A stretch of 64,000 bases of DNA, taken from positions 17,011 through 81,010 of the forward strand of contig CAZDWZ010000008.1 in assembly GCA_964509425.1 (NCBI GenBank), written 5' to 3'. The number at the start of each line of letters is the position of its first letter. Position 1 is the stretch's first letter. Origin of the DNA: an uncultured Bdellovibrionales bacterium. GTDB lineage: Bacteria; Bdellovibrionota_C; UBA2361; SZUA-149; CAZDWZ01. Shown here one piece after another: positions 441 through 63,658 of this stretch. The notes beneath the pieces were generated by a model that worked only from the letters and a program-made list of their open reading frames with translations, searched no databases and had not been told where the DNA came from. Both the position numbers and the translations under genes were made by a program.

Positions 441-2690
441 TTTGCGGAGTGCTGCTTCCCGGTCCACCAGCGACGGGTGTCCTAGGAAGTATCGGTGAAA
501 GCGGCCGAAGGTGCTTGGGATTCCTCCTTCTGAATGAATTTTCCGAAGTGCCAGGATCATGACCTCGGGGCTCCCCACCAGCTTTGCGGCAAACGAATCA
601 GCGGCAAATTCCTGACGTCGAGAGAGAATTCCTACGAGAGCTCCTATGAGTGGTGCGCCGAGGAGCACCCAGACGAAAAACCAGGTGCCGATCGGAAGCG
701 TCTTCGAGAACGGCATCGATTGAATGGACGAAATGAGATAATAGACGCCGATCGTGACCAGGAGCGCTGCGATTGCGCGACGCAAGACGTCGTGGTGTTT
801 CAGATGACCAAGCTCGTGCGCGACAATGGCCCGCAACTCCTCCTCCGTGCAGCGATCGAGGAGAGCCTGGGTGACGAGAATTTTCCTGGTTTTCGACGTG
901 AGTCCCGCGGCCCACGCGTTTGCGATTCTTCCCGTCGGTTCCTCGAAGACGACTATCTTCGAGAGCGAAATTCCTGAGCGTTTGCTGAGGTCTTCTACCA
1001 TCGATTTGAATTCCACGGCTTCGTGTTTCGACTTTGCCGACGAGAATAGGAACAACACCGAGGAAGACAGCAGGAAGATCGTGAACGTAACGACGACCAG
1101 CAGCAGGTTCGACGAGGCGAGCTTCGGAAAATAATAGGTGAGCGCGATCAATATCAAAAACGGGATAGTCGAAAAAAACAGTCCCCGGAGATGGGCGAGA
1201 TAGAATTTCTTCGCGGTCAGCTTTGATTTAAACACCTCTTGTTCGACTCGAATCCAGCTGCCTCGAGTGAGCGTGCTACAGAAAATCAGGAGAAAGATAA
1301 AAATCAAAGCTCCGAATATCTCTACAGCGAGAGAATAATACCACTCGCTGCTCGGAGTGATGTTTTCTTTGCCGAGAGGAAGGAGTATGCGCGGCAGAAA
1401 CCACGCGAGCGTTTCTGCCGTCTGACTGGTGAAGATTTGAAACGCATTTCCGAAGACCATCAGCGCGATAATGACGAGAATTTGCAGCTGTCTGAGGCGG
1501 CCGATCTTCCTTCCGAGTCCAAACGCGACGACTCTAAACTCTTCGCCCTCCAGAGTTTTCAGGCGGACAATGCCTCGTTTTGCCAAGTGACGGGCGATTA
1601 CTATCGGGAGAAAAAACGGAATGAGATACAGGAGAAGCATTCCAAAGGTCCGTAGGTTCAATGGACTGTAGAAAAGCGACCCGTCGCTCTTGAAATAATA
1701 GTTTTGGTGCCAACGCACCGCCGAGATGACGCGTTCGTTCGGTATCGTCAGCCGGGCGAATTCAAGCGGGACGACCGTTTTTCCGGTTGAATCTATGACT
1801 CCACAAAATTTGTCTATGCACACGGATGTGAGGCCGTAGAAAAAATAATTTGGCCCATCATACCGGGGCTCAATCACGAAATCACCCGCAGCGTTGATGA
1901 ACCCCCACTTTTTCGAGTGGAGATCGGCCGCGGGAGTTTTATCAGCGGTATACATTCCCAGTCCCGAATAGCGTTTGTCGAAGAGGGGATTTCCGTCGCG
2001 ATCGATGAACGTGTAGCCGTTTTCAAGCTCCACCGCGGCGCGGCCATCGCTGAACTCCGCGGCGTTTTTATAGGTCGGAGTGAGCACCCACTCACCTTTC
2101 TCATTGATGTACCCCCAGCGCTCTTTTTCTCGCACCGCCGCCAGGCCTTCAGAGAACTCAGACGCATCGGTAAATCGTGGTGGAATGACCGGCACGCCGT
2201 CTAAATTCATAAACCCGATGAGGCCGTTTTCGTCCGGCTCGGATGCGTAGAGGGATTCAGGGAGCGAAGGCGACGTCTCTCGCTTGGCGTAATTTTCGGC
2301 GGTGATAAAATTTCCGGATGTATCAATGAATCCGGTTCTGTTGTCGTTGCTTGTCACGAAGGCCCGTCCGTTTGAGAACACGTAAGCCTGCCGAAACGTC
2401 GGCTGAATCTTTATCTCGCCGGCCGGCCCGATGTAGCCCCAAGACTTTCCAATCAGCACGGCGGCGAGGCCTTCCGAGAAATGATGTGCGAAGTCGTAAC
2501 GAGGTTTTATTACCGCGTGTCCCGATTCATCGATGAACCCGTACTTTCCGAATTCGGCGATCAAATATCGCTGCGGTTCCTTCGTCTCGGCATGAGCCAC
2601 GGACATCGAAAAAAATGCCGCGACAGCAAAAATCGCGGCGATGATACCCCGTGAATTCAGGATGGAAGATTGGAGGAACCTCATAGGCAT
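408..2690 (-). CDS. WG-repeat periplasmic domain fused to a polytopic membrane M48 (HtpX/Ste24-type) zinc metalloprotease
   Basis: Signal-like N-terminus (MPMRFLQSS...SVAHA). Many G(F/Y)I(D/N)xxG...F(S)EGLAAV repeats including WGYI and WGFI. Then multiple hydrophobic helices, HELGHLKHHD, and a C-terminal GHPSLVDRE motif. Start placed at ATG 2690; the ORF opens at 2801. Confidence 0.85.
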   Translation of the reverse strand: MPMRFLQSSILNSRGIIAAIFAVAAFFSMSVAHAETKEPQRYLIAEFGKYGFIDESGHAVIKPRYDFAHHFSEGLAAVLIGKSWGYIGPAGEIKIQPTFRQAYVFSNGRAFVTSNDNRTGFIDTSGNFITAENYAKRETSPSLPESLYASEPDENGLIGFMNLDGVPVIPPRFTDASEFSEGLAAVREKERWGYINEKGEWVLTPTYKNAAEFSDGRAAVELENGYTFIDRDGNPLFDKRYSGLGMYTADKTPAADLHSKKWGFINAAGDFVIEPRYDGPNYFFYGLTSVCIDKFCGVIDSTGKTVVPLEFARLTIPNERVISAVRWHQNYYFKSDGSLFYSPLNLRTFGMLLLYLIPFFLPIVIARHLAKRGIVRLKTLEGEEFRVVAFGLGRKIGRLRQLQILVIIALMVFGNAFQIFTSQTAETLAWFLPRILLPLGKENITPSSEWYYSLAVEIFGALIFIFLLIFCSTLTRGSWIRVEQEVFKSKLTAKKFYLAHLRGLFFSTIPFLILIALTYYFPKLASSNLLLVVVTFTIFLLSSSVLFLFSSAKSKHEAVEFKSMVEDLSKRSGISLSKIVVFEEPTGRIANAWAAGLTSKTRKILVTQALLDRCTEEELRAIVAHELGHLKHHDVLRRAIAALLVTIGVYYLISSIQSMPFSKTLPIGTWFFVWVLLGAPLIGALVGILSRRQEFAADSFAAKLVGSPEVMILALRKIHSEGGIPSTFGRFHRYFLGHPSLVDREAALRKLESPAPPASS

Positions 2691-2852
2691 GTTCAGGAAG
2701 ATCGACCCGGCAAAGTCTCGACTAAAGCCGCAAATACGCTCGCTCTTTTTTGGATTCAGCCAGAACTGTAAGATGCCGATATCTTTCCTGTCTGATGGCA
2801 TTACGCGGCAATCGCCGTAATTTTCAAAGAGGTCTAACTACAGGGACACCGT

Positions 2853-3764
2853 ATGAAGCGCCAACGAATACTCTCAGTACTACTTCTCAGTTTCGTCCTC
2901 GTGCAGCTCTCCGCTTGCTCGGGACGTGCTACCATCCCGGTCGGAGAAATTCCTCAAGCTCAGGTTCCCGATCTCGCGAAGCGAAAATCTACATTGAGCG
3001 CTGCGTATGGATATGCGCAGCAAAACGGCTACAGCGTCACTCACGATGCTCGGCAGGAAAAGCGTCTCCAATCCATGGTTGACCGGATGGCGCGCGCTGC
3101 AGGAGCGCAAGGATTTTCATATCCGGTCGTGCTCATTGATGCTGGAGAAGACGTAAACGCCGCAGCGATGAACGGCTCGGTAATCATGGTCTATCAAGGT
3201 CTTCTTAAGAGAGTGCGGAACGACGACGAACTCGCAACGATTATCGGCCATGAAGTGGCACACATAGTCACCAAACATCACGAAGACGATGGTGCAGAGG
3301 GTCGTGAAACGGCGGTCAGTATCGGAAGCTCACTCATTGGGCTCGCGGCTGGCGTCGGAGCGGCTGCGGCGGGCGCTGGATCAACCGCCTCAGGACTTGC
3401 AAGTGATCTCGGTGAAGGCGTGTCGGCAACAGTAGGAACGGGCGCATTTGTCCGCTCGTATGACCGCGATATGGAACGGGAAGCTGATCAAGTCGGTCTT
3501 ATGATTATGTCGAAGGCGGGTTATAACCCCGAGGCTGCAGTGGCCCTCTGGCAGCGTGCGGATGAAGTTTTCGGCGAAGGCGGAGGCGGTGGATCTTTCC
3601 TCAGCACACACCCGACCAGCTCAGATCGACTGGAACGAATCCAAGAAGCGATGCCGGTCGCAAAAAAGTATTTCGATGAATCCCGACATTCAAACCCGCT
3701 TCCGCTCGACAAAGATGTCGAGAAGCCTTCAAAGAAAAAGGCAAAGAACCGGAAGAAGAAATAA
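2853..3764 (+). CDS. M48-family zinc metalloprotease lipoprotein (YcaL/LoiP-like)
   Basis: Lipobox-like LSAC after a hydrophobic N-terminus, GHEVAHIVTKHH zinc motif, STHPTSSDRLERI C-terminal motif and a Lys-rich tail. Divergent from the other M48 gene. Confidence 0.85.
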   Translation: MKRQRILSVLLLSFVLVQLSACSGRATIPVGEIPQAQVPDLAKRKSTLSAAYGYAQQNGYSVTHDARQEKRLQSMVDRMARAAGAQGFSYPVVLIDAGEDVNAAAMNGSVIMVYQGLLKRVRNDDELATIIGHEVAHIVTKHHEDDGAEGRETAVSIGSSLIGLAAGVGAAAAGAGSTASGLASDLGEGVSATVGTGAFVRSYDRDMEREADQVGLMIMSKAGYNPEAAVALWQRADEVFGEGGGGGSFLSTHPTSSDRLERIQEAMPVAKKYFDESRHSNPLPLDKDVEKPSKKKAKNRKKK

Positions 3765-4439
3765 TTATTTAACCCCGGCGACAATCTCGAGCAGCTCTCC
3801 CAGCGTCGAGATGAGAGGAGCCTCCGTTTTTCGGAGGTGACTCTCCGCCTGGGCGCCGCCGGTAAATAGGACGGCATTTACTCCGAGAGCCTGCGCCAGC
3901 TCGAAATCATGAACGGTGTCTCCGATGAGGAGCATCTCGTCCGGCCGGATTCCAGAATCAATCCGGCCCTCATCCCGAAGCTTGGTAAGATGTGAATGTC
4001 CAAGGGGGATCTTCGAGGATCCTCCTTCACCGGGGTTTCCCGTGAACAGAATAAAATCTTCCGTCACGTTGCACATCGAGACACCTGTCTCGAGAAGAAA
4101 TTGCGGATGAGAGCTGAGAATGGAGTGAGAGATTCCAGTTTTTGCCAGTGCGCGAATGACGGATTCGGCGCCGTGATGCAGCCGGCAGATTTTGCGGCGT
4201 TCAAAGTATATTTCGTGGAACTTGGCCCCGAGAATCGTGAATTCGTCGGAGGGGATGTCCCGGCCGAGGAGAGCATTCCAGAAATCGCTCACCGGAATCG
4301 TAAAGTGTTCGCGGAAGTCGTCAAAGGAGAAAGTGGGAACGTGGTGATTGGCAGCGAGATCCCGGCAGATTTCCCAGCACAGCTCCGCGTCGTTAAATAG
4401 TGTGCCGTTCCAGTCCCAGATGATGTGCCGAATTTGCAT
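3765..4439 (-). CDS. HAD-superfamily hydrolase (phosphatase-like)
   Basis: HAD motif I read as IIWDWNGTLFND. Late motif LLIGDTVHDFELAQALGVNAV. Start placed at ATG 4439; the ORF opens at GTG 4511. Confidence 0.8.
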   Translation of the reverse strand: MQIRHIIWDWNGTLFNDAELCWEICRDLAANHHVPTFSFDDFREHFTIPVSDFWNALLGRDIPSDEFTILGAKFHEIYFERRKICRLHHGAESVIRALAKTGISHSILSSHPQFLLETGVSMCNVTEDFILFTGNPGEGGSSKIPLGHSHLTKLRDEGRIDSGIRPDEMLLIGDTVHDFELAQALGVNAVLFTGGAQAESHLRKTEAPLISTLGELLEIVAGVK

Positions 4440-4603
4440 GAGAGGGGCCCGTTTGGTGTGTCCGGTGGCAAAAGTATTAAATTGAGTTTGGGGACGTAAG
4501 TGCTGCGGCACACAATACGCCGTTTCTTGGGGAATAGATAATTCTGTGATAGCCCATTCCGGATTCTGGACACTCTCAGAGACACTTTCAAGCGTGCTTC
4601 CCC

Positions 4604-12803: not shown

Positions 12804-15245
12804 GTGAGCGGATATTCACTCATCTCTGAAGTTCTGAAGCGTTTCTCGCGATTCCGGCGGGTTAACCTCCTTTTGTCGCTGCTCGCCCCCTTGTTGCTGC
12901 TCGCTCTCGCCGTTTTGCTCGCTCAAAGCGACCTTTTGAAAGCCCCCTTTCTTCTTCTCGCCGGAGCCGGGTTCGGACTCCTCGTCGTAATTCTGGTTCG
13001 TGAGGCGAGAGGTTTGTTCGCGCCGGTGAAGCTCCCCGAGGCGGCAGCCTTCGTCGATGAAAAGCTAGAAGGAAAGGAAAGATTCCTGACCCTCGCTTCC
13101 GTTCAAGACCGCGAGCTTCCCGCGAAAGAGCTCGCTCTCATCGAGGAACAGGCAGACTCTCTCGCGGGACGGTTTAACCTCACTCAAGATGCGCCGTTTG
13201 AGCTTCATCGTTCTGCGCGAGTCTCGGCGGTGCTTTCTCCGGTCCTTCTCGGACTCTTACTCTTGTTACTCGTCGCTCCTTGGAAAGAAGAGGAAATTAG
13301 ACTTCCAAAGTCGGAAGAATCGCTGAAGGCGCCTGAAGCCAACGCCATTCGAGAGCTCGTTGAACAAAGTCCCGATCTCCCCGAACCGCTCAAGGATTCA
13401 CTGAATACTCTGGCGGATGCCGTAGAGGAACAGGGCTTGAAGTCCGAAGAGGTTTCGCAGCAGCTGGAAGAGCTCGAGAGCGATGTGAAAGAAGTTGAAG
13501 AAAAAATCGAGCAGCAGAATCAGGAAGTGAAGCCGGAGGACGAGAAGACGGAAGCAAAGCGTCCCGAGACGAGATCGGATTCAAAAGACCCCGGCGATCC
13601 AAATGCAAAGCTTCCGCGATCGGATAGCCCGGACGATTCGAAGGAAAGGAAACAGCCGGAAGAGAAGCAGCAATCCGAAGAGAAAAAATCAGAAACGCAA
13701 AAACACGAAGGGAAAAAAGGATCCGAGGAGAAATCCGCCGACAAGAAGTCTGAGGAGAAAAAATCCGAAGAGGAGAATTCCGCGAAGAAAGAGGAACAAG
13801 GCAAAGAAGAGAAGGAAGAAAAGAAGCAGCCGAGTTCTGAACAACAACCGGGAGGTTCCGAGAGCTCGGAGCAGCAAGGCGGAGACGGAAAGAAACAAGA
13901 ATCTTCCGATCAGACCGGTGAGCAGCAGAAGAACGACCAAGGCACCGAAGAGAAAGGTCAGAAGGAAAACTCGGGCGAAAAACAAGAAGCTCCAGGAGAG
14001 AAAAATTCCGAAGACAAACCATCCGGAGATCAAGCTCAGCAAACCGAGCCGAAGGGAGAACAACAAGATGATCCGAAGAAGGATCAGACTGGTGTCGGCG
14101 AAGGAAAGGGCAAGGGTAGCTCGGGCGACAAGAAGGAGCAGAAAGGCGAAACCCAATCCGGCAGTGACGATCGCGGCGCAAAAGAAGGAGACGCCAAGAA
14201 CCAACAAAAGGAAGGGAGTCAGTCAGGATCTGATTCCGGGCAGCAAGACAGCCAAGAAGGAAAGAAAGGCCCGAAACCCGGCGACAAACAGGAAGAAGGT
14301 GCTGAAGGCTCGGGAAAATCTCCCGACGGGAAAAAAGATTCCGGCAAAAAAGATTCTAAAACTGGAGATGCAAAGTCTCAGCTCGAAAACGTTAAAAGCC
14401 GGCTCGAAGAGCTGAAAGATAAATCGTCTGAAGAGCAGAATGCCGAAGGGAAAGAAGGCTCTCAGCCAAGCGAGCAAGGAAAACAGGAAGACAAACCCCG
14501 AAAACAGCCGCAGTCCGGAAAAAGCCCGTCAGAAGATAAACAATCTCCGGGAGAAAAAGGCGAGAAGGGCGAGAAGGGAGAAAAAGGCGAGAAAGGCGGT
14601 AAGAAGCCCGACGAAAAATCCGGCGAGAAGCAAGACAAAGGGCAGAGCGGAAAGCAGCAAGAGAAGTCGGAAGGTCAGGAAAAGGGCGAGTCCGAACAGG
14701 GTTCGCAGCCTGGGGAGAAGCCGGGAAGTAAATCCGAGAAAGGCGAGAAAGGTGAGCGCGGTGAAAAGGGACAGAAGTCCGATAGACCCGCAGACTCTGC
14801 AAAGGACGGCTCCAATCAGTCCGAGCAGCAGAGCAAAGATATGCAAGGAAAGCGCCCCGCAAACGAGGGGAAGAACGAAGCAAAAGATGTCGGTGATGAC
14901 TCCGACTCCGATGTCGCTCCGATGGATCCGAAAGGCAAAGACACGAGCAAGGCCGCTGAGAAACGGCCCGTACCAAGCGATGAAGGAGAGCGCCCCGGAC
15001 CGTTTGGCGGCGGAGATGAAGGTATTCTGCAAGAGAAGGATAGATCGGTAAGCTCTGTTGCGATTCCGCAGGAGGAAAAGATTGTGGTGCGAGATCTCGG
15101 ACAGTCGGATGGCAAGCTTTACAAAAATCCGAATCAGGCAAAGGCGAAAACAGGACTTGATGCCGTAGCTTTTGAGAAGCCGAAGGCGGAAGTCGCGGAG
15201 TCGTCGCAGCCGATTCCGGTGGAGTACCGCGATCTTCTGCGATAG
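12804..15245 (+). CDS. Membrane protein with a ~570-aa K/E/S/G/Q/D low-complexity region (DUF4175-like by context and C-terminal motif)
   Basis: Three hydrophobic helices lie in the first ~165 aa. A long polyampholyte stretch follows, including GEKGEKGEKGEKGGK. The C-terminus is SSQPIPVEYRDLLR. It lies directly upstream of the MoxR/vWA cluster. Confidence 0.7.
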   Translation: MSGYSLISEVLKRFSRFRRVNLLLSLLAPLLLLALAVLLAQSDLLKAPFLLLAGAGFGLLVVILVREARGLFAPVKLPEAAAFVDEKLEGKERFLTLASVQDRELPAKELALIEEQADSLAGRFNLTQDAPFELHRSARVSAVLSPVLLGLLLLLLVAPWKEEEIRLPKSEESLKAPEANAIRELVEQSPDLPEPLKDSLNTLADAVEEQGLKSEEVSQQLEELESDVKEVEEKIEQQNQEVKPEDEKTEAKRPETRSDSKDPGDPNAKLPRSDSPDDSKERKQPEEKQQSEEKKSETQKHEGKKGSEEKSADKKSEEKKSEEENSAKKEEQGKEEKEEKKQPSSEQQPGGSESSEQQGGDGKKQESSDQTGEQQKNDQGTEEKGQKENSGEKQEAPGEKNSEDKPSGDQAQQTEPKGEQQDDPKKDQTGVGEGKGKGSSGDKKEQKGETQSGSDDRGAKEGDAKNQQKEGSQSGSDSGQQDSQEGKKGPKPGDKQEEGAEGSGKSPDGKKDSGKKDSKTGDAKSQLENVKSRLEELKDKSSEEQNAEGKEGSQPSEQGKQEDKPRKQPQSGKSPSEDKQSPGEKGEKGEKGEKGEKGGKKPDEKSGEKQDKGQSGKQQEKSEGQEKGESEQGSQPGEKPGSKSEKGEKGERGEKGQKSDRPADSAKDGSNQSEQQSKDMQGKRPANEGKNEAKDVGDDSDSDVAPMDPKGKDTSKAAEKRPVPSDEGERPGPFGGGDEGILQEKDRSVSSVAIPQEEKIVVRDLGQSDGKLYKNPNQAKAKTGLDAVAFEKPKAEVAESSQPIPVEYRDLLR

Positions 15246-15272: not shown

Positions 15273-15516
15273 CTCTCAGTCTCAGTCTCAGTCTCTGTCT
15301 TGGTCTCTATTTCGATTCTCTGTCTCGGTCTTGATTTCTCAGTCTCTGCCTCTACCTCGGTGTTTTGTTGACGGAGACGGAGACGGAGCGGGGGAGATAG
15401 AGATGGAGGCAGAGAGCGAGTAAAGAGATTGAGACTGAGAGTTGAGATAGAGACCGAGACCAAGACTGAGACTGGGATGGAGCCTGAGACGGAGACTGAG
15501 AATTGAGACTGAGGCT
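15273..15516. repeat. Long imperfect inverted repeat (hairpin) built from degenerate hexamers, CTCAGT-type on the left arm and GAGACT-type on the right arm
   Basis: Complementary blocks keep register: 15277-15287 with 15464-15474, 15297-15310 with 15447-15466, and 15343-15352 (tctctgcctc) with 15406-15415 (gaggcagaga). The centre is near 15361-15372. Confidence 0.8.
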
Positions 15517-38060: not shown

Positions 38061-38156
38061 GGCTTCTCTGTCTCGAAAAAACGAACAATTCCTATAGCCG
38101 TGTGCAAGGGAATCTTCAAGGCGACGGGATTCCGGCTAATGCCTCAGTATGAAATT

Positions 38157-38389
38157 TCTCCGGTGCTCTGGTGCTCTGTGGTTCGTTATCAATAAAAAAA
38201 TGAACCACAGAGCACCAGAGCACTGGAGAAAAGGCGAAAAAGGTCCCAAATTCAAACTGAGACACCGGCACCCACTCGATGTCTGCTCTGTGCCTCTGCG
38301 CCTCTGTGGTTCGATAGGCACCGCAAACCAGGTCGCAGCGACGCGGAGATTCGCTATCCTATTGAACCACAGAGACACAGAGGCACGGA
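38157..38389. repeat. Four copies of a ~27-nt GAACCACAGAG-type REP-like element arranged as two inverted pairs
   Basis: Pair 1: 38157-38183 and 38201-38227 are reverse complements with 1 mismatch in 27 and a 17-nt A-rich loop. Pair 2: 38285-38311 and 38363-38389 have 4 mismatches (23/27) and a ~51-nt spacer. All four share GAACCACAGAGnnnCAGAGnCACnGAG. Confidence 0.85.
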
Positions 38390-38423
38390 GAAATAACTGG
38401 ATTTTGCCCGTTGGGCTCAAGGG

Positions 38424-51346: not shown

Positions 51347-51408
51347 ACCGCCAAAAAACAATAAATACAGAAGTCCCTGTTAGGTTTGATTTTGGCGGAA
51401 GACGAGGA

Positions 51409-51466
51409 GCGGGATTAAAAAAAAGCGGAGTTTACTACTGTAAATGAGCATTTTTTTTAATCCCGC
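51409..51466. terminator. Bidirectional terminator-like hairpin between convergent genes
   Basis: gcgggattaaaaaaaa (51409-51424) pairs with ttttttttaatcccgc (51451-51466), a 16-bp stem. A second ccgccaaaa/ttttggcgg hairpin lies just upstream (about 51349-51399). Confidence 0.55.
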
Positions 51467-57509: not shown

Positions 57510-57792
57510 ATCGAGTTTTCCTCCAAACCTTTCCAGCCCGCGTGATCTCACGAGCCTCTGGGACCCGGTGTTATAAAACTGAAAGAAGTCCAAATTATAT
57601 TGAATAACCGGACTCGCGCGAAACCGGTAACCTCGTAGCTACGTTATTCCGACTTTGACGAATTAGCTGATGAAAGAAACGGAATGCCGGATTCTGCGTC
57701 CAAATGACACGAACAAGCTTTACTATTATCGGCGATGTGCCGACTATGGTTTTTATCGGCTTGTTCCGTGTTTCGGGTTTGATTGAGCACCT

Positions 57793-57984
57793 ATGTCGAA
57801 GAAAGAAAAACGAGGCCTCTATTTTCAAGGGCTTATGCTCCTGCTTGCGTTGGTTTGCCTGTGGCTGACCGACATCGCGGGCGTGCTCTCCGCTGACAAG
57901 GCCAGCGCCAATCCGACCCCCGGATATAAGTCCGATCCCTCAAACACGCTGGCCCCCAGAATATCCTTCCAAGCTCGGCAATAG
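57793..57984 (+). CDS. Possible small single-TM protein
   Basis: 63-codon ORF with a hydrophobic helix GLMLLLALVCLWLTDIAGVL. Isolated in a 700-nt intergenic region. Confidence 0.3.
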   Translation: MSKKEKRGLYFQGLMLLLALVCLWLTDIAGVLSADKASANPTPGYKSDPSNTLAPRISFQARQ

Positions 57985-58097
57985 GCCGGAATTCCGGCTC
58001 ATTTCGGAATCGCTTTCCCCCTGCGGCAACTCTGAACCTGGGGTGGGGATTTTCAGATTCTCTATGTGATTTCTAGAGTTCCCTTGCGGACCTGCCA

Positions 58098-58135
58098 TGG
58101 TATAGTGCTGCGGCCGGTTAACCGGCAGTTTTGAA
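58098..58135 (+). promoter_or_regulatory. Extended -10-like element (TGGTATAGT) immediately followed by a perfect 14-bp palindrome GCCGGTTAACCGGC and a T-run
   Basis: tggtatagt lies at 58098-58106. The palindrome lies at 58113-58126 and is followed by agtttt. It is about 160 nt upstream of the Ser/Thr kinase start. Confidence 0.3.
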
Positions 58136-58291
58136 TCGCGAATTCACCAGAACACTGCCCGGCGGAGCTGGCGTGTTCCTCAGCACAGCTGAGCCGGTAG
58201 AGTCGAGGTTCCGACGCTATAAAAACTGCGCCAAAAGCTCGGTATGAAAGGTCAAAATTACTCGGTCGGAACATAGGTCTCGGCAATCATT

Positions 58292-59976: not shown

Positions 59977-60579
59977 ATGGCTCTTGAAGCTTCGCAGCTA
60001 AACGCAAACCCCTTTTTGCAATTTCAAGAATGGCTCGACGCGGCAAAGGCCTCGTCCGGAATGAGCTATCCCAACGCCGTCTGTCTTTCGACCGTGACGC
60101 CCGACGGGGATCCCGATGGCCGGATTGTTCTCTTGAGAGGGCTGAGCGAAAACGGACTCGATTTTTATACGAACAGCGAATCCTCAAAGGGAGTTTCGTT
60201 GGAGGCCTCCCCCAGGGCCGCGATGACTTTCTACTGGGACAAGCTCCAGCGGCAAGTGCGAGTTCGCGGCAGCGTGACCAAAGTCACAACGGAAGAATCC
60301 GACGCCTATTTCGCGTCGCGGCCGAGAGAGTCGCAGATCGGTGCCTGGGCCTCGCAGCAAAGCCGACCGCTCGAAAATCGTGCAACTTTCGAAGGCAGGT
60401 TGAGGGATTATGAGCGGCAATTTGAGGGCGCTCAAATAGCTCGCCCCCCGCACTGGTTCGGATTTCGCCTCATTCCTCAAGCTTTTGAGTTCTGGCAGGA
60501 ACAGCCGTTTCGACTTCATGACCGCTTTCTCTACACGCGCCACGGGTCAGTTTGGGAGATCCAACGTCTCTACCCCTGA
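59977..60579 (+). CDS. pdxH: Pyridoxamine 5'-phosphate oxidase
   Basis: NPFLQFQEWL, RIVLLRG, FYTNSESSKG, SRPRESQIGAWASQQS, EFWQEQPFRLHDR...RLYP. Confidence 0.93.
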   Translation: MALEASQLNANPFLQFQEWLDAAKASSGMSYPNAVCLSTVTPDGDPDGRIVLLRGLSENGLDFYTNSESSKGVSLEASPRAAMTFYWDKLQRQVRVRGSVTKVTTEESDAYFASRPRESQIGAWASQQSRPLENRATFEGRLRDYERQFEGAQIARPPHWFGFRLIPQAFEFWQEQPFRLHDRFLYTRHGSVWEIQRLYP

Positions 60580-60850
60580 CTCCCATCCGTCGCCGCACGA
60601 AAAAGTAAACCCACGCTTGCTTCACGTACCAAGGAAGTATAAGGTATTTTTTTGCTCGATTGCTCTCTCAAACAAATCAATATCGTTGGTAGCAACTCGT
60701 CCACGCATCTTGCAGTTTCTCCATTAGCTGGTCCTTCTTGCCGTTAGCGGCGACTCAATAAACGAATCTTTCTCTTGTTTCTCTTTCGTTTTCGCTGCGG
60801 ATTAAGCTTTTTAGTAAACGCAAGATTCACGTCGGCCGGGTGTTCTCCTT

Positions 60851-60930
60851 ATCCATGGGTCTAGCAGGAAGGCTTGCCGTGCCGTCTTTTGCAGCGCCAT
60901 CTAGAGTTCTCTTTCTGGACCAATGGAACC
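60851..60930 (+). repeat. Hairpin module copy A (ATCCATGGGyCTA ... GGACCAATGGAACC)
   Basis: Shares a 13-nt 5' block and a 14-nt 3' block with copy B. The two blocks are imperfect reverse complements of each other (tccatgggtct / ggaccaatgga). Confidence 0.6.
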
Positions 60931-61387
60931 AAAGTCGTTTTGTTCATCGTTTGGAAGGGAGCACAGCTTCCGCGTGATTTAGTTCACCGGTCTCTCCCGT
61001 CCCCCCAGGAGATTTTTCTCAATACTTCCCTACGCTTTTACGCAATACATCTTCGCCTTCTCCAAACTTTTCTCGGCTTTGCCGATTTTAGTTTGGCCTT
61101 CGGGCCAAGTTGATGGCCTACGGGCTGCTCGCCGCCCTTGAGGCGGCCCCGGCATGCTTGTTTCTGAAACTTGTTGATTGCTGGATCTGTTCGCTCTTGC
61201 GTAACGGAACATGAGACTAACTCCTATTTGACTTCATCAAGATTATCTTCACCGATTTATTTAGATGAACACCTTTAGGAATTTTTTGGTTCCGGAGGTC
61301 CATGTATTTCCTCCTTTCATTTCTGCTGATCGCTTCCGCTGCCTTTCCTACTTTCCTGCACTCGTCTTTCTTACACTACCTCCTTCG

Positions 61388-61432
61388 CTGTGTAGTCACT
61401 CTGTGTAGTCACTCTGTGAAGTCACTCTGTGG
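61388..61432. repeat. 13-bp tandem repeat, 3.5 units (CTGTGTAGTCACT)
   Basis: 61388-61400 and 61401-61413 are identical. 61414-61426 has one change. A partial ctgtgg follows. The reverse complement contains CCACAGAG/CACAGAG cores like the 38.2-kb elements. Confidence 0.85.
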
Positions 61433-61978
61433 CCTCAATCGCTCTCGAAAGTATTTCAGTCGTCCGCTTCGCCGTGTCTGTTGCGTTCGGACCTTCCAAA
61501 TTCAGCTCTGTTCCAGCATTTCTAATACCGACCCATTCCAATTCTCGCTTTCAGCGCATCTGTGTTTCGTCCTGTGGCTTCTTTGCGACAATTTTTGTTT
61601 CCTCATTGCATTTTGCTTTCACACGTTTCACCTCGTTGTTCCCGGTTTCGCGGTGCGTTCGTTGCCCGCGTGTCGCGCGTAAGATTTCCTGCGGGAAAGC
61701 GGCGTGTCATTAAAAAAAATTTGGTATCCGCAACTACCAACCATCTCTAAGATTCTCTTTCCGTCACGCGCAAATTTTGGGACCTGACGTGAATTTTTTT
61801 TCATTCACGACTTGTCACAAAAATTTAACAGAGATAGGAAACTGCTTCGCACGTTGTTCTCTTCCGCCTCGCGGTCCTGAATTTTCGGCCTTTTTCTGCA
61901 GTTTCTCTGAGAAACACCTCAGAAATCATCGCTCAGAAATTTCGTCGCGTGGCTAAATCTTGAAACGGGTAAGACCAT

Positions 61979-62032
61979 ATCCATGGGCCTACAGGGGAGA
62001 GCTGCCTCTCCATCTTTAGGACCAATGGAACC
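61979..62032 (+). repeat. Hairpin module copy B
   Basis: atccatgggcctacaggggagagctgcctctccatctttaggaccaatggaacc. It contains an inner perfect ggagag-ctgc-ctctcc stem and the same terminal blocks as copy A. Confidence 0.6.
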
Positions 62033-62498
62033 GATTAGGTATTTTTATGGTTTTTTCGCCTCTCTGATTTCCTCCAACTTTTCAGCATTCAAATTTCAGT
62101 AAGTGAAACTCTCACTTTGAACTGACGCTTGTTTCACCGAATTATCGGTCGAAATTTCTTCTCCACGCTCGCGATCTGCGGATGTGCGGCTCACGATTGG
62201 ACGAACGTTTCCTCTTGGAAGCGTCGTGCACTCGTGCGCCTCACTTCCCCCTCACATCCGAACCTGGGGAAGTTCCCGAGAGGCGTACGAAAGATGTCCC
62301 AGTGGGCTCAAACCAAGGAGGACGCAGCGATGCGTATTCGAGCTCCCCCGGCTTAATCGCCGGGAGTGCGGTCGGCACCGGCGTTTTCGCCGGCCGCACT
62401 CTGTCTTCTGTCTGAGTCAACCCAACCGTTGGGGGGCTGGCCCGGTCGTTGCACCGGTCCGGCCCCCTGTCTCATCCGTTCACGGAGAAACTGCAGTC

Positions 62499-62654
62499 AT
62501 GCGCAACCTCGTCAACTTCAGCCCCGGCGTCGCCGGCGGCTGCTTCACGAAGGCGAACCTCGTCAACCACAACCCGGCGCACAACGACGGCGGCGGCGGG
62601 CACGCCGGCCACGGCCTCGGCCACGACCCGGGCCACATGACGGCCGGCGGCTGA
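62499..62654 (+). CDS. 52-aa His/Gly-rich micro-protein with 100% G/C-ending codons
   Basis: ATG 62499 with GGAGA 10 nt upstream, TGA 62652-62654. Product is MRNLVNFSPGVAGGCFTKANLVNHNPAHNDGGGGHAGHGLGHDPGHMTAGG. All 51 sense codons end in G or C (read one by one). No family recognised. Confidence 0.5.
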   Translation: MRNLVNFSPGVAGGCFTKANLVNHNPAHNDGGGGHAGHGLGHDPGHMTAGG

Positions 62655-63280
62655 TCAAGGGCGCGACCGAGCCGAGCGTACGCATGAGCTGACAAGCTCT
62701 GCTACTAACCCACCACCGGACGGCCTCATCACGGCATAGCTTGTACCGAGCTACACCTCGAGACCGTCTCGAAGTGTGCTCCTACAGCATATTGCCGGTT
62801 GGGCTAGCAGCGGTGCGTACGCAAGGCGGCGGGCCTGGGAATCTTTCGAAGTAAGCGACCGGCCGACGCGCAGCACCTTTGTGCGCGTCGGCATCGCCAG
62901 ACTTCGGTTCCTAGGTCCGTCACTTTTGTGGTGGCGTATTTTGCCGGATCTCTTCGTTGAAAGATTCCGCCTTCGCCAAGGCTTCGGCGGACAAGCTCCT
63001 TTTGCTGAAGCTACTTCGGGGAATTTCGCAGGAGTAAACTCCGCTCCTCGCCGCTCTTTCGCCTCGACCTCCGCCAAAATACCCCACCAACTTCGACTCT
63101 TATTTTCTATTTTCCAATCGCGAGAGCGATCTCGCCCTGGATGGTCTTGCCGCTGCCGCTGTCGCGGCTCTTTTCTTTTGATTTAAGCACGCCTCTCAGA
63201 AATTTTCGTATAACCCTCGACGTGGTCCTTGTTGGCCGCGATGGCGTTTATTTTTTCGATAGTTTTTGGAATGCGGTTTT

Positions 63281-63658
63281 ATGAAGCGGAAATTTCTCGT
63301 AGCGCTTTCTTTTTGCCTCACCTTTATCGGCTCCACGGCAATTTCTTCTCGTTCTGCGGTTGCAGACGATAGGCCCGCTTGCGTGCTTGAGGTGATCTAC
63401 GACGCGAACACTCCGCCCTGGCTGTTCTGGCTCTTTAAAGCGGGGACGACTCCTTGCGCGGGCGGTGTTTCGGCTTGTCTTACCAAGGAAGGAAACTCTC
63501 CTCCTGCCTCGCGTATTGAAGAGGGCGACATCTTCACGGGGGTTTGCTGGGATAAGCTCCCGAAGGGGAATGTTCAGGCTGTGAACTCGCGGATAATCGA
63601 CGAGTTCTTCATAAACGTCATCTTCCCGCTCCTCGGTGGGCCGACGTTTCTCCCATAA
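63281..63658 (+). CDS. Small secreted Cys-containing hypothetical protein
   Basis: Signal peptide MKRKFLVALSFCLTFIGSTAISSRSAVA from ATG 63281. Four Cys in the mature part. Confidence 0.55.
   Translation: MKRKFLVALSFCLTFIGSTAISSRSAVADDRPACVLEVIYDANTPPWLFWLFKAGTTPCAGGVSACLTKEGNSPPASRIEEGDIFTGVCWDKLPKGNVQAVNSRIIDEFFINVIFPLLGGPTFLP

Follow-up and report, generated by a model that had tools for sequence, protein, structure and literature searches.

In the 64,000-nucleotide (nt) stretch of DNA analysed here (the window), which belongs to an uncultured Bdellovibrionales bacterium, the region 60580-63280 separates pdxH (59977-60579) from the next gene (63281-63658). This region was interpreted, with moderate confidence, as a conserved, lineage-restricted locus for a large structured RNA on the plus strand, which carries one micro-gene. 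The locus is non-coding except for a 51-codon open reading frame (ORF), and it is under purifying selection. Between the flanking genes no gene-like ORF of 90 or more amino acids (aa) is present, and the flanking genes and the small ORF are all on the plus strand. The first-pass annotation had described an unusually long gap, and the crude ORF map agreed: no other gap in the window comes near this one of 2.7 kb, the remaining gaps being at most 947 nt and mostly under 300 nt. Its statement that the gap contains no believable ORF was correct for products of 90 aa or more and incorrect for the 51-codon ORF at 62499-62654, which looks real.

The relatives of the locus were ordered by pdxH identity, which was 94% for L080, 65% for L088, 64% for L087 and 61% for a further lineage (L081-L085). 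The synteny comparison revealed a gene-free stretch with the same ordered motifs 3' of pdxH in these four other lineages, and the relatives are equally devoid of intact genes there. The gene-free length from pdxH to the contig end is 307 nt in the 94% relative, 1176 nt in the 65% relative, 628 nt in the 64% relative and at most 1948 nt in the 61% lineage. As far as the contigs reach, the motif islands are colinear in all five lineages. The first island is TTGCYT-N15-TATA[AC][GC], about 57 nt past the pdxH stop. It is followed by UCCAUGGGYCUA, a variable stem and GGACCRAUGGAACC, a long hairpin which is present twice, then by four tandem hairpins having UNCG or GNRA loops with compensatory changes, and then by the core, UGAGACUA...GGUUCCNGNGGUCCAUG. 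Lineage-specific short tandem repeats lie about 100 nt beyond the core, a second GGACCAAUGGAACC lies 1102 nt (window) or 1121 nt (L082) from the first copy, and a GC-rich block with the small ORF closes the series only where the contigs extend that far. The HAD-...-kinase-pdxH gene order upstream is common to the window and the 61% lineage. The nearest named homologues of the flanking genes are from Oligoflexia, Bdellovibrionales and 'Deltaproteobacteria' metagenome-assembled genomes, a weak indication of taxonomy, and the window proteins are present on Logan contigs from SRR13608702.

The conservation of this non-coding sequence exceeds the neutral rate, for which the third codon positions of pdxH were taken (identity to the window 79% in L080, 45% in L088, 45% in L087 and 33% in L082). 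In the aligned block 61060-61312, which comprises the core together with the four hairpins, the window and L088 have 76% identity, compared to 45% at the third positions, and they share identical runs of 23 nt in the core and 30 nt in the adjoining hairpin block. For L080, the first 32 nt past the pdxH stop are 78% identical, near the third-position value of 79%, and the identity leaps exactly at the promoter-like element, from which point only 3 differences in 112 nt (97%) were found.

The same comparison bears on a decayed gene island or pseudogene graveyard, as also raised in the first-pass annotation, or a mobile-element remnant, an origin which is now considered very improbable. The region is a compositional outlier with AT-rich and GC-rich parts and assemblies tend to break in it, as decay would allow; against this, the same gene-free layout is retained where the pdxH protein differs by 35-39%. 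The 20 ORF translations of the region gave no Pfam signal, and the codon log-likelihood was at most 0.02, that is non-coding, for every ORF of the region except the 51-codon one. No single stop-codon reassignment opened a long ORF in the region, by which a recoded gene was also rejected. Blastn against plasmids and phages showed no similarity, and the sequence is not repeated elsewhere in the window, bar about 70 nt at the extreme 3' end.

The layout of the locus is modular, with a structured domain I at about 60.85-61.31 kb, an unstructured C/U-rich spacer with fast-evolving tandem repeats at 61.31-61.97 kb, and a very strongly structured, mostly GC-rich domain II at 61.97-63.15 kb, which encloses the small ORF. 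The folding z-score of domain I was -3.4 in the window (60840-61312) and -8.4 in L082 (5920-6556), while the spacer gave -0.33 (61313-61967) and -0.50 (L082 6557-7043). The part from hairpin B to the small ORF gave -6.26 (61968-62498) and -4.14 (L082 7044-7573), and the part after the ORF, including the terminator-like hairpin, gave -7.84 (62655-63200), the L082 contig ending before it. A SecA coding control in the window showed +0.26. In both lineages compared, the structured modules fold beyond the composition expectation (-3.4 to -8.4) and the spacer stays near zero. This modular fold is kept although sequence identity over the last two modules that were compared is only about 43%.

The composition of the region was in accordance with its earlier description as pyrimidine-rich and AT-richer at 60.6-62.1 kb with a switch to GC-rich sequence near 62.2-63.0 kb. 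Over 60580-62140 the plus strand is 60.6% pyrimidine and 46.9% GC, and the pyrimidine content reaches 62.9% over 60650-61700; the remaining window has a mean of 48.8 +/- 4.0% and a peak of 56.8% on the pyrimidine-rich side. The GC content rises to 62.3% over 62141-63050, the value for the entire window being 54.4%. The internal repeats claimed earlier were also recovered, as 3.4 tandem copies of a 13-nt unit at 61388-61431 and as a two-copy element at 60852-60930 and 61980-62032. For a further motif, GGTTCC-N0-6-GGTCC, 0.28 occurrences would be expected in the window and five were found, four of which are within the region in alternating orientation, at 60917 (-), 61288 (+), 62019 (-) and 62906 (+). 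The first three are present in L082 before its contig end.

Signs of an RNA came from the tandem hairpins H1-H4 at 61068-61153 (plus strand), located at 61073-61085, 61093-61108, 61115-61126 and 61131-61147. Their loops are UUU or UUCG in H1, UUCG in H2, UACG or UGCG in H3 and CUUGA, UUCU or GGAA in H4, and all 16 instances in four lineages fold. Four pairs changed on both sides, namely G-C to C-G and C-G to A-U in H1 of L082, U-A to G-C in H2 of L087, and C-G to G-C in H4 of both L087 and L082, and a G-U pair occurs in H2 of L082. On manual reading only terminal pairs break and no uncompensated internal stem change was seen. A U tract comes after H1 in every lineage. Loops of the UUCG, UACG/UGCG and GGAA types closed by C-G are extra-stable RNA tetraloops. 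Tetraloops of the cUUCGg and cUACGg/cUGCGg types, like the G-U pairs, are found on the plus strand only, and since they are sensible only there, they favour a plus-strand RNA over a DNA element. The candidate explanation of one or more large structured non-coding RNAs (ncRNAs) was thus supported by synteny, core conservation, kept hairpin pairing and strongly negative z-scores in two lineages. The stems quoted in the first-pass annotation are present at 61093-61108, 61131-61147 and 62862-62892, the first two being at 61.09-61.15 kb and not in the 62.2-63.0 kb part under which they had been listed.

The same hairpins weigh on an explanation at the DNA level, in which the repeated GGACC-N-GGAACC sites, the tandem repeats and the palindromes would be protein-binding sites of a structural, partition-like or regulatory region. 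A regulatory or structural chromosomal region had been a further candidate of the first-pass annotation. A 14-nt motif which is invariant across lineages in alternating orientation, tandem repeats resembling iterons and a folding stability that is symmetric between strands all suit such an element. It is nevertheless judged unlikely, as three stems are closed by the extra-stable cUNCGg tetraloops on the plus strand only, pairing survives G-U changes that would become A-C mismatches if read from the opposite strand, and stem sequences vary while the pairing stays. The spacer between the half-sites of the motif also varies in length, between 2 and 3 nt. DnaA boxes (TTATCCACA) with up to one mismatch are absent from 60.5-63.3 kb, their total in the window being equal to chance, and a chromosomal origin (oriC) was rejected on this ground.

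The 5' part of the structured RNA locus starts with a bipartite promoter-like element, TTGCTT-N15-TATAAG, at 60617-60643 (+). Both boxes and the 15-nt spacing are aligned in the window, L080, L088, L087 and L082, and this sequence form suggests a promoter role. A conserved segment at 60644-60722 (+) follows, which contains TGCAGTTTCTCC (60711-60722), a complement of the region where the small ORF starts. A boxA antitermination leader of the rrn type was rejected, as no ungapped match to TGCTCTTTAACAA with three or fewer mismatches was found in the region; TGCTCTCTCAAACAA at 60658 is boxA-like only if a 2-nt insertion is allowed. Hairpin element A (60843-60968, +) is composed of UCCAUGGGUCUA (60852-60863), a variable apical stem, GGACCAAUGGAACC (60917-60930), a small ACC/GGU hairpin and a U-rich tract. 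It is also present in L088, L087 and L082, and by its 5' strand only in L080, whose contig ends within it. Five of the six copies fold as one long irregular hairpin (z = -2.2 to -4.1).

The most conserved core (61197-61304, +) extends from UUGCGUAACGGAACAUGAGACUA (61197-61219) to GGUUCCGGAGGUCCAUG (61288-61304). In the RNAalifold structure CAUGAGACU pairs with GGUC-CAUG, a helix in which the changes CG to UG and AU to GU occur in L082. A 126-codon ORF at 61302-61682, which opens from the conserved GGAGGUCCAUG, was rejected as a gene with a codon score of -0.07. The ORFs opened at this motif are 126 aa in the window, 33 aa in L088 (1579-1680) and about 107 aa in L082 (6546-6869); they look unrelated on reading, score as non-coding and contain internal tandem units of 13 and 14 nt. 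In every lineage GGAGGUCCAUG gives a Shine-Dalgarno-like sequence with an AUG that opens an ORF, and the motif may serve for ribosome loading or may just belong to a helix.

The small ORF of 51 codons, MRNLVNFSPGVAGGCFTKANLVNHNPAHNDGGGGHAGHGLGHDPGHMTAGG (62499-62654, +), was supported by codon usage, periodicity and relatives, and looks like a real micro-gene that the first-pass annotation missed, though it was already among the gene-caller predictions. The G/C fraction at its third codon positions is 1.00 and the C fraction 0.80, compared to 0.52-0.68 and 0.23-0.38, respectively, for 18 host genes. Third positions that are entirely G or C in a genome of 54% GC point to strong selection on this ORF. 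The period-3 signal is confined to it, starting and stopping with it, and its codon log-likelihood of 0.176 per codon is within the range of window genes (0.077-0.207). The Shine-Dalgarno-like sequence GGAGA is located at 62484-62488, 10 nt upstream of the ATG. Among 1.8 billion representative proteins, a profile-free HMMER search yielded one relative, P0243 (40 aa, 63% identity), with a near-identical N-terminus M-x-NLVNFSPGVAGGC and the same ...DGGGG...MTAG end. At the same position L082 has a 42-codon ORF (P0245) which is almost entirely G/C-ending and ends in the same CTGATCAAG, and its length differs from that of the small ORF by whole codons. The three peptides gave no match in Pfam and NCBIfam. 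Their sequences contain much Gly, His and Asn and, on reading, show no hydrophobic run of some 15 residues or longer; this speaks against a hok-like type I toxin, which would be a small hydrophobic protein spanning the membrane.

A narrower explanation is that function is limited to the small ORF with its immediate signals and that the rest is a tolerated long intergenic spacer holding the neighbours' terminators, promoters and small regulatory hairpins. The ORF is the sole clearly selected coding element, and H1 followed by a U tract in all lineages would fit such a signal. This explanation is considered improbable, for about 250 nt of core is conserved like the first and second codon positions of pdxH, the module order and several spacings are conserved, z-scores reach -8 across more than 1.5 kb, and the genome is otherwise compact.

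The structured RNA locus and the ORF may also be connected by base pairing. The segments 60711-60722 and 61897-61907 (TGCAGTTTCTC[C]) are both complementary to the Shine-Dalgarno region of the small ORF at 62485-62496. Dinucleotide shuffling produced a complementarity of at least 12 nt with a frequency of 0.45% (P = 0.0045), and 0 of 2000 shuffles had two matching loci. The first of the two segments falls within the 97%-conserved block shared with L080.

The spacer at 61313-61967 (+) is an unstructured C/U-rich sequence which contains the 13-nt repeat at 61388-61431, an AT block at 61690-61840 and the second TGCAGTTTCTC copy at 61897-61907. It is unalignable between lineages, and its composition and position are retained. 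Lineage-specific tandem repeats occupy the equivalent place, with a 14-nt unit in L082 and 7- and 8-nt units in L088. The hairpin earlier quoted from the AT block has its CGTGAAT / ATTCACG stem at 61788-61809, and its loop was found to be UUUUUUUC and not T9. Hairpin element B (61971-62054, +; z = -3.85), which carries the second UCCAUGGGCCUA...GGACCAAUGGAACC copy, is followed by a mostly GC-rich, highly structured stretch upstream of the small ORF (62055-62498, +), in which long hairpins lie at 62365-62400 and 62432-62467. The GGACCAAUGGAACC motif precedes the ATG by 480 nt in the window and by 479 nt in L082, with the sequences only about 43% identical.

Past the small ORF, the 3' structured domain (62655-63148, +) comprises hairpin C at 62828-62921, a hairpin at 62862-62892 and a long stem at 62929-63089. 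In hairpin C, GGUUCCUAGGUCC (62906-62918) is paired with GGGCCUGGGAAUC, and a 20-nt inverted repeat was also found in this domain. An intrinsic-terminator-like GC hairpin followed by UCUUUUCUUUU lies at 63149-63179 (+; terminator scan match 63152-63168), about 100 nt upstream of the start of the next gene.

Taken as one unit, these elements would give a transcript of about 2.5 kb which starts at the bipartite element just past pdxH and runs as far as the terminator-like hairpin near 63.18 kb. The large folded RNA would double as the messenger of the micro-protein, forming a giant dual-function transcript. Its fold may gate translation of the small ORF, as 60711-60722 and 61897-61907 can pair with the ribosome-binding region. 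The GGACC-N3-GGAACC and GGUUCC-N2-3-GGUCC motifs would form either the local hairpins A, B and C or long-range helices closing the domains. Such long-range helices, A:a and B:b, are possible; the L082 centroid uses A:a, and the minimum-energy folds of the window prefer the local hairpins.

The main rival is two or more transcription units, a possible arrangement to which less than even weight is given. An independent ncRNA of about 0.7 kb (60.65-61.4 kb) would end in the C-rich spacer, and a second unit, with its start in the AT block (61.69-61.84 kb), would be made up of hairpin B, a structured 5' untranslated region, the small ORF and a structured 3' untranslated region. The spacer is unstructured, C-rich and G-poor in both lineages, the AT block contains weak -35-like TTGTCA sequences, and the conserved separation of the hairpin B motif and the ATG (480 versus 479 nt) suggests a self-standing unit. 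On the other side, the AT block yielded no identifiable conserved promoter and is unalignable with L082. The GGACC...GGAACC motif family and its complement are common to both halves, and segments of the first half are complementary to the start of the ORF.

Several further observations weigh against a single large structured plus-strand RNA. Rho favours termination in unstructured, C-rich and G-poor RNA, so the 650-nt spacer should promote Rho-dependent termination, which speaks against one continuous transcript. Plus-strand transcription is itself deduced from sequence features, and the minus strand folds equally well, so that energy alone cannot fix the strand. The 15-nt spacer of the promoter-like element is short for sigma-70 and the element was not called by the sigma-70 scan; it could be something other than a promoter. 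In a formal count 83% of cells were paired, and 8-19 of 500 shuffles were as high. The covariation is suggestive, not proven, because only four sequences were available and loop-size differences shift the register; the strongest motifs are invariant and uninformative about pairing. The pairing between the upstream segments and the ORF start is not kept in L082, where the best match is 9 nt, which makes this lead lineage-specific. Finally, the comparative coverage ends by the small ORF, where the contigs of the relatives stop, and the 3' part is seen in the window alone.

The points at which assemblies stop were noted separately. Two independent assemblies of a relative, L082 (contig end 7711) and L215 (1144), both end exactly 9 nt past the small-ORF stop, L081 (8739) ends inside the GC-rich leader, and the window's own Logan contigs break at about 63054-63062. 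These repeated breaks indicate that the GC-rich structured part seems hard to assemble or is strain-variable.

Other carriers of the locus were also searched for. The scan of GTDB species genomes for pdxH found nothing nearer than 54% and no synteny, the kinase homologues L213 and L214 (42-48% identity) are not followed by pdxH or by a gene-free stretch, and synteny is also missing in P0006, a pdxH relative. A metagenome scan with TGGCCTTCGGGN{6,16}GGCCTNCGGGC returned at least 120 loci; those listed show neither another motif of the locus nor BLAST similarity and were taken as chance matches. Scans of viral contigs gave no true match, and a covariance model (R1) of the four hairpins recovered only its own four training sequences. 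In a non-syntenic pdxH relative (L089-L091), an 80-aa RRM_1 RNA-binding protein gene is directly 3' of pdxH and no gene-free stretch is present. Upstream of the locus, L081 of the 61% lineage encodes a TPR protein of 469 aa and a product of 229 aa (2402-4585) between the HAD-side genes and the kinase, and the counterpart in the window (57594-58291) is just a 698-nt gap with a 63-aa gene call.

The search for known families by Rfam, an earlier proposed check, gave no match at the gathering score in the entire window, L080, L082, L087 and L088; the families covered included OLE, GOLLD, ROOL, HEARO, raiA, group I/II introns, RNase P, 6S, transfer-messenger RNA and riboswitches. At E<=10 only three chance-level matches appeared, with E >= 4. 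ARAGORN detected no transfer RNA or transfer-messenger RNA. The attC sites of integrons have the core sites RYYYAAC/GTTRRRY; none was seen on an informal reading of the hairpins, and the conserved module order also argues against an attC array. No other copy of 60580-63020 is present within the 64-kb window, and a dispersed repeat of the repetitive extragenic palindrome (REP) or miniature inverted-repeat transposable element (MITE) type was rejected on this basis.

Only the segment 63025-63090 (+) has a second copy, at 51385-51445 (-), with CAG[G/T]AGTAAACTCCGCT and then CCTCG[A/T]C[C/T]TCCGCCAAAAT in common. The copy at 51.4 kb lies between convergent genes and has a perfect 16-bp A8/T8 hairpin, and the end of the region may accordingly belong to a small dispersed intergenic repeat family. 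Other repeats were observed elsewhere in the window. The most strand-skewed kilobase of the window is at 13200-14400, inside the ORF 12804-15245, where pyrimidine is just 28-31% and 9- and 15-nt tandem repeats point to a low-complexity protein segment encoded by purines. Just 3' of this ORF, 15274-15513 contains GAGACT/TCTCAG-type hexamer arrays with 57-nt inverted arms (79% complementary). At 38155-38393 there are 8-nt repeat arrays and a 33-nt inverted repeat (94% complementary), with only short overlapping ORFs.

Very few bacterial RNAs other than ribosomal RNA are known to be longer than 600-800 nt, and each large one described to date (OLE, GOLLD, ROOL) forms an unexpected architecture. 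The sizes of OLE, GOLLD, ROOL, raiA and HEARO are about 400-800 nt, and the present locus, at about 2.5 kb, would exceed them three- to fourfold. It is tentatively proposed that the locus represents a new class of giant bacterial RNA, in which a single transcript of more than 2 kb would have two ornate domains on a flexible C/U-rich tether and also serve as the highly structured messenger of a fast-evolving micro-protein. Such an RNA would act as a ribonucleoprotein scaffold or as a self-regulating RNA-plus-peptide module in an uncultivated lineage. If this is true, bacterial RNAs would be shown to reach larger sizes and to include further designs, and the locus would give a testable case of a coupled RNA fold and small protein product. 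Long stretches devoid of ORFs in metagenome-assembled genomes can be checked by synteny in this way even with a handful of short contigs.

Among known systems, the palindromes of the REP, bacterial interspersed mosaic element (BIME) and MITE types share the GC-rich, near-perfect intergenic hairpins, and the last ~70 nt of the region (63025-63090) is likewise two-copy. The bulk of the locus is single-copy in the window and is syntenic and colinear across diverged lineages, unlike dispersed repeats. The hok-type toxin mRNAs, in which a long-range fold hides the ribosome-binding site (PMC9841398, PMC6733600), also embed an ORF of about 50 codons in a fold of high stability, and a hok-like feature of the locus is the presence of distant upstream segments complementary to the translation start. 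The locus differs from hok in its Gly/His/Asn-rich peptide without a hydrophobic helix, in having no evident antisense RNA gene, in its much larger size and in a pairing that is not conserved in L082. OLE, GOLLD, ROOL, raiA and HEARO (PMC12286853, PMC10861870, PMC2864571) are, like the locus, long, conserved, multi-hairpin and mostly non-protein, with a narrow bacterial range and a discovery through conservation in an overlong intergenic gap. The locus differs from these in the long unstructured C/U-rich spacer and the embedded small ORF, and no sequence or structure match to them was found in Rfam. The dual-function RNAs RNAIII/hld, SgrS/SgrT, SR1/SR1P, AzuCR and VcdRP (PMC12612679, PMC12310071, PMC8915982, PMC8672173) likewise combine a structured RNA with one ORF of up to about 50 codons, in a mostly non-coding transcript (predicted for the locus) conserved for non-coding reasons. 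They are about 0.15-0.5 kb, whereas the RNA predicted here would be at least about five times larger. In how it works, the locus would come closest to the large ornate ncRNAs (PMC12286853) and the dual-function RNAs (PMC12612679), without belonging to either.

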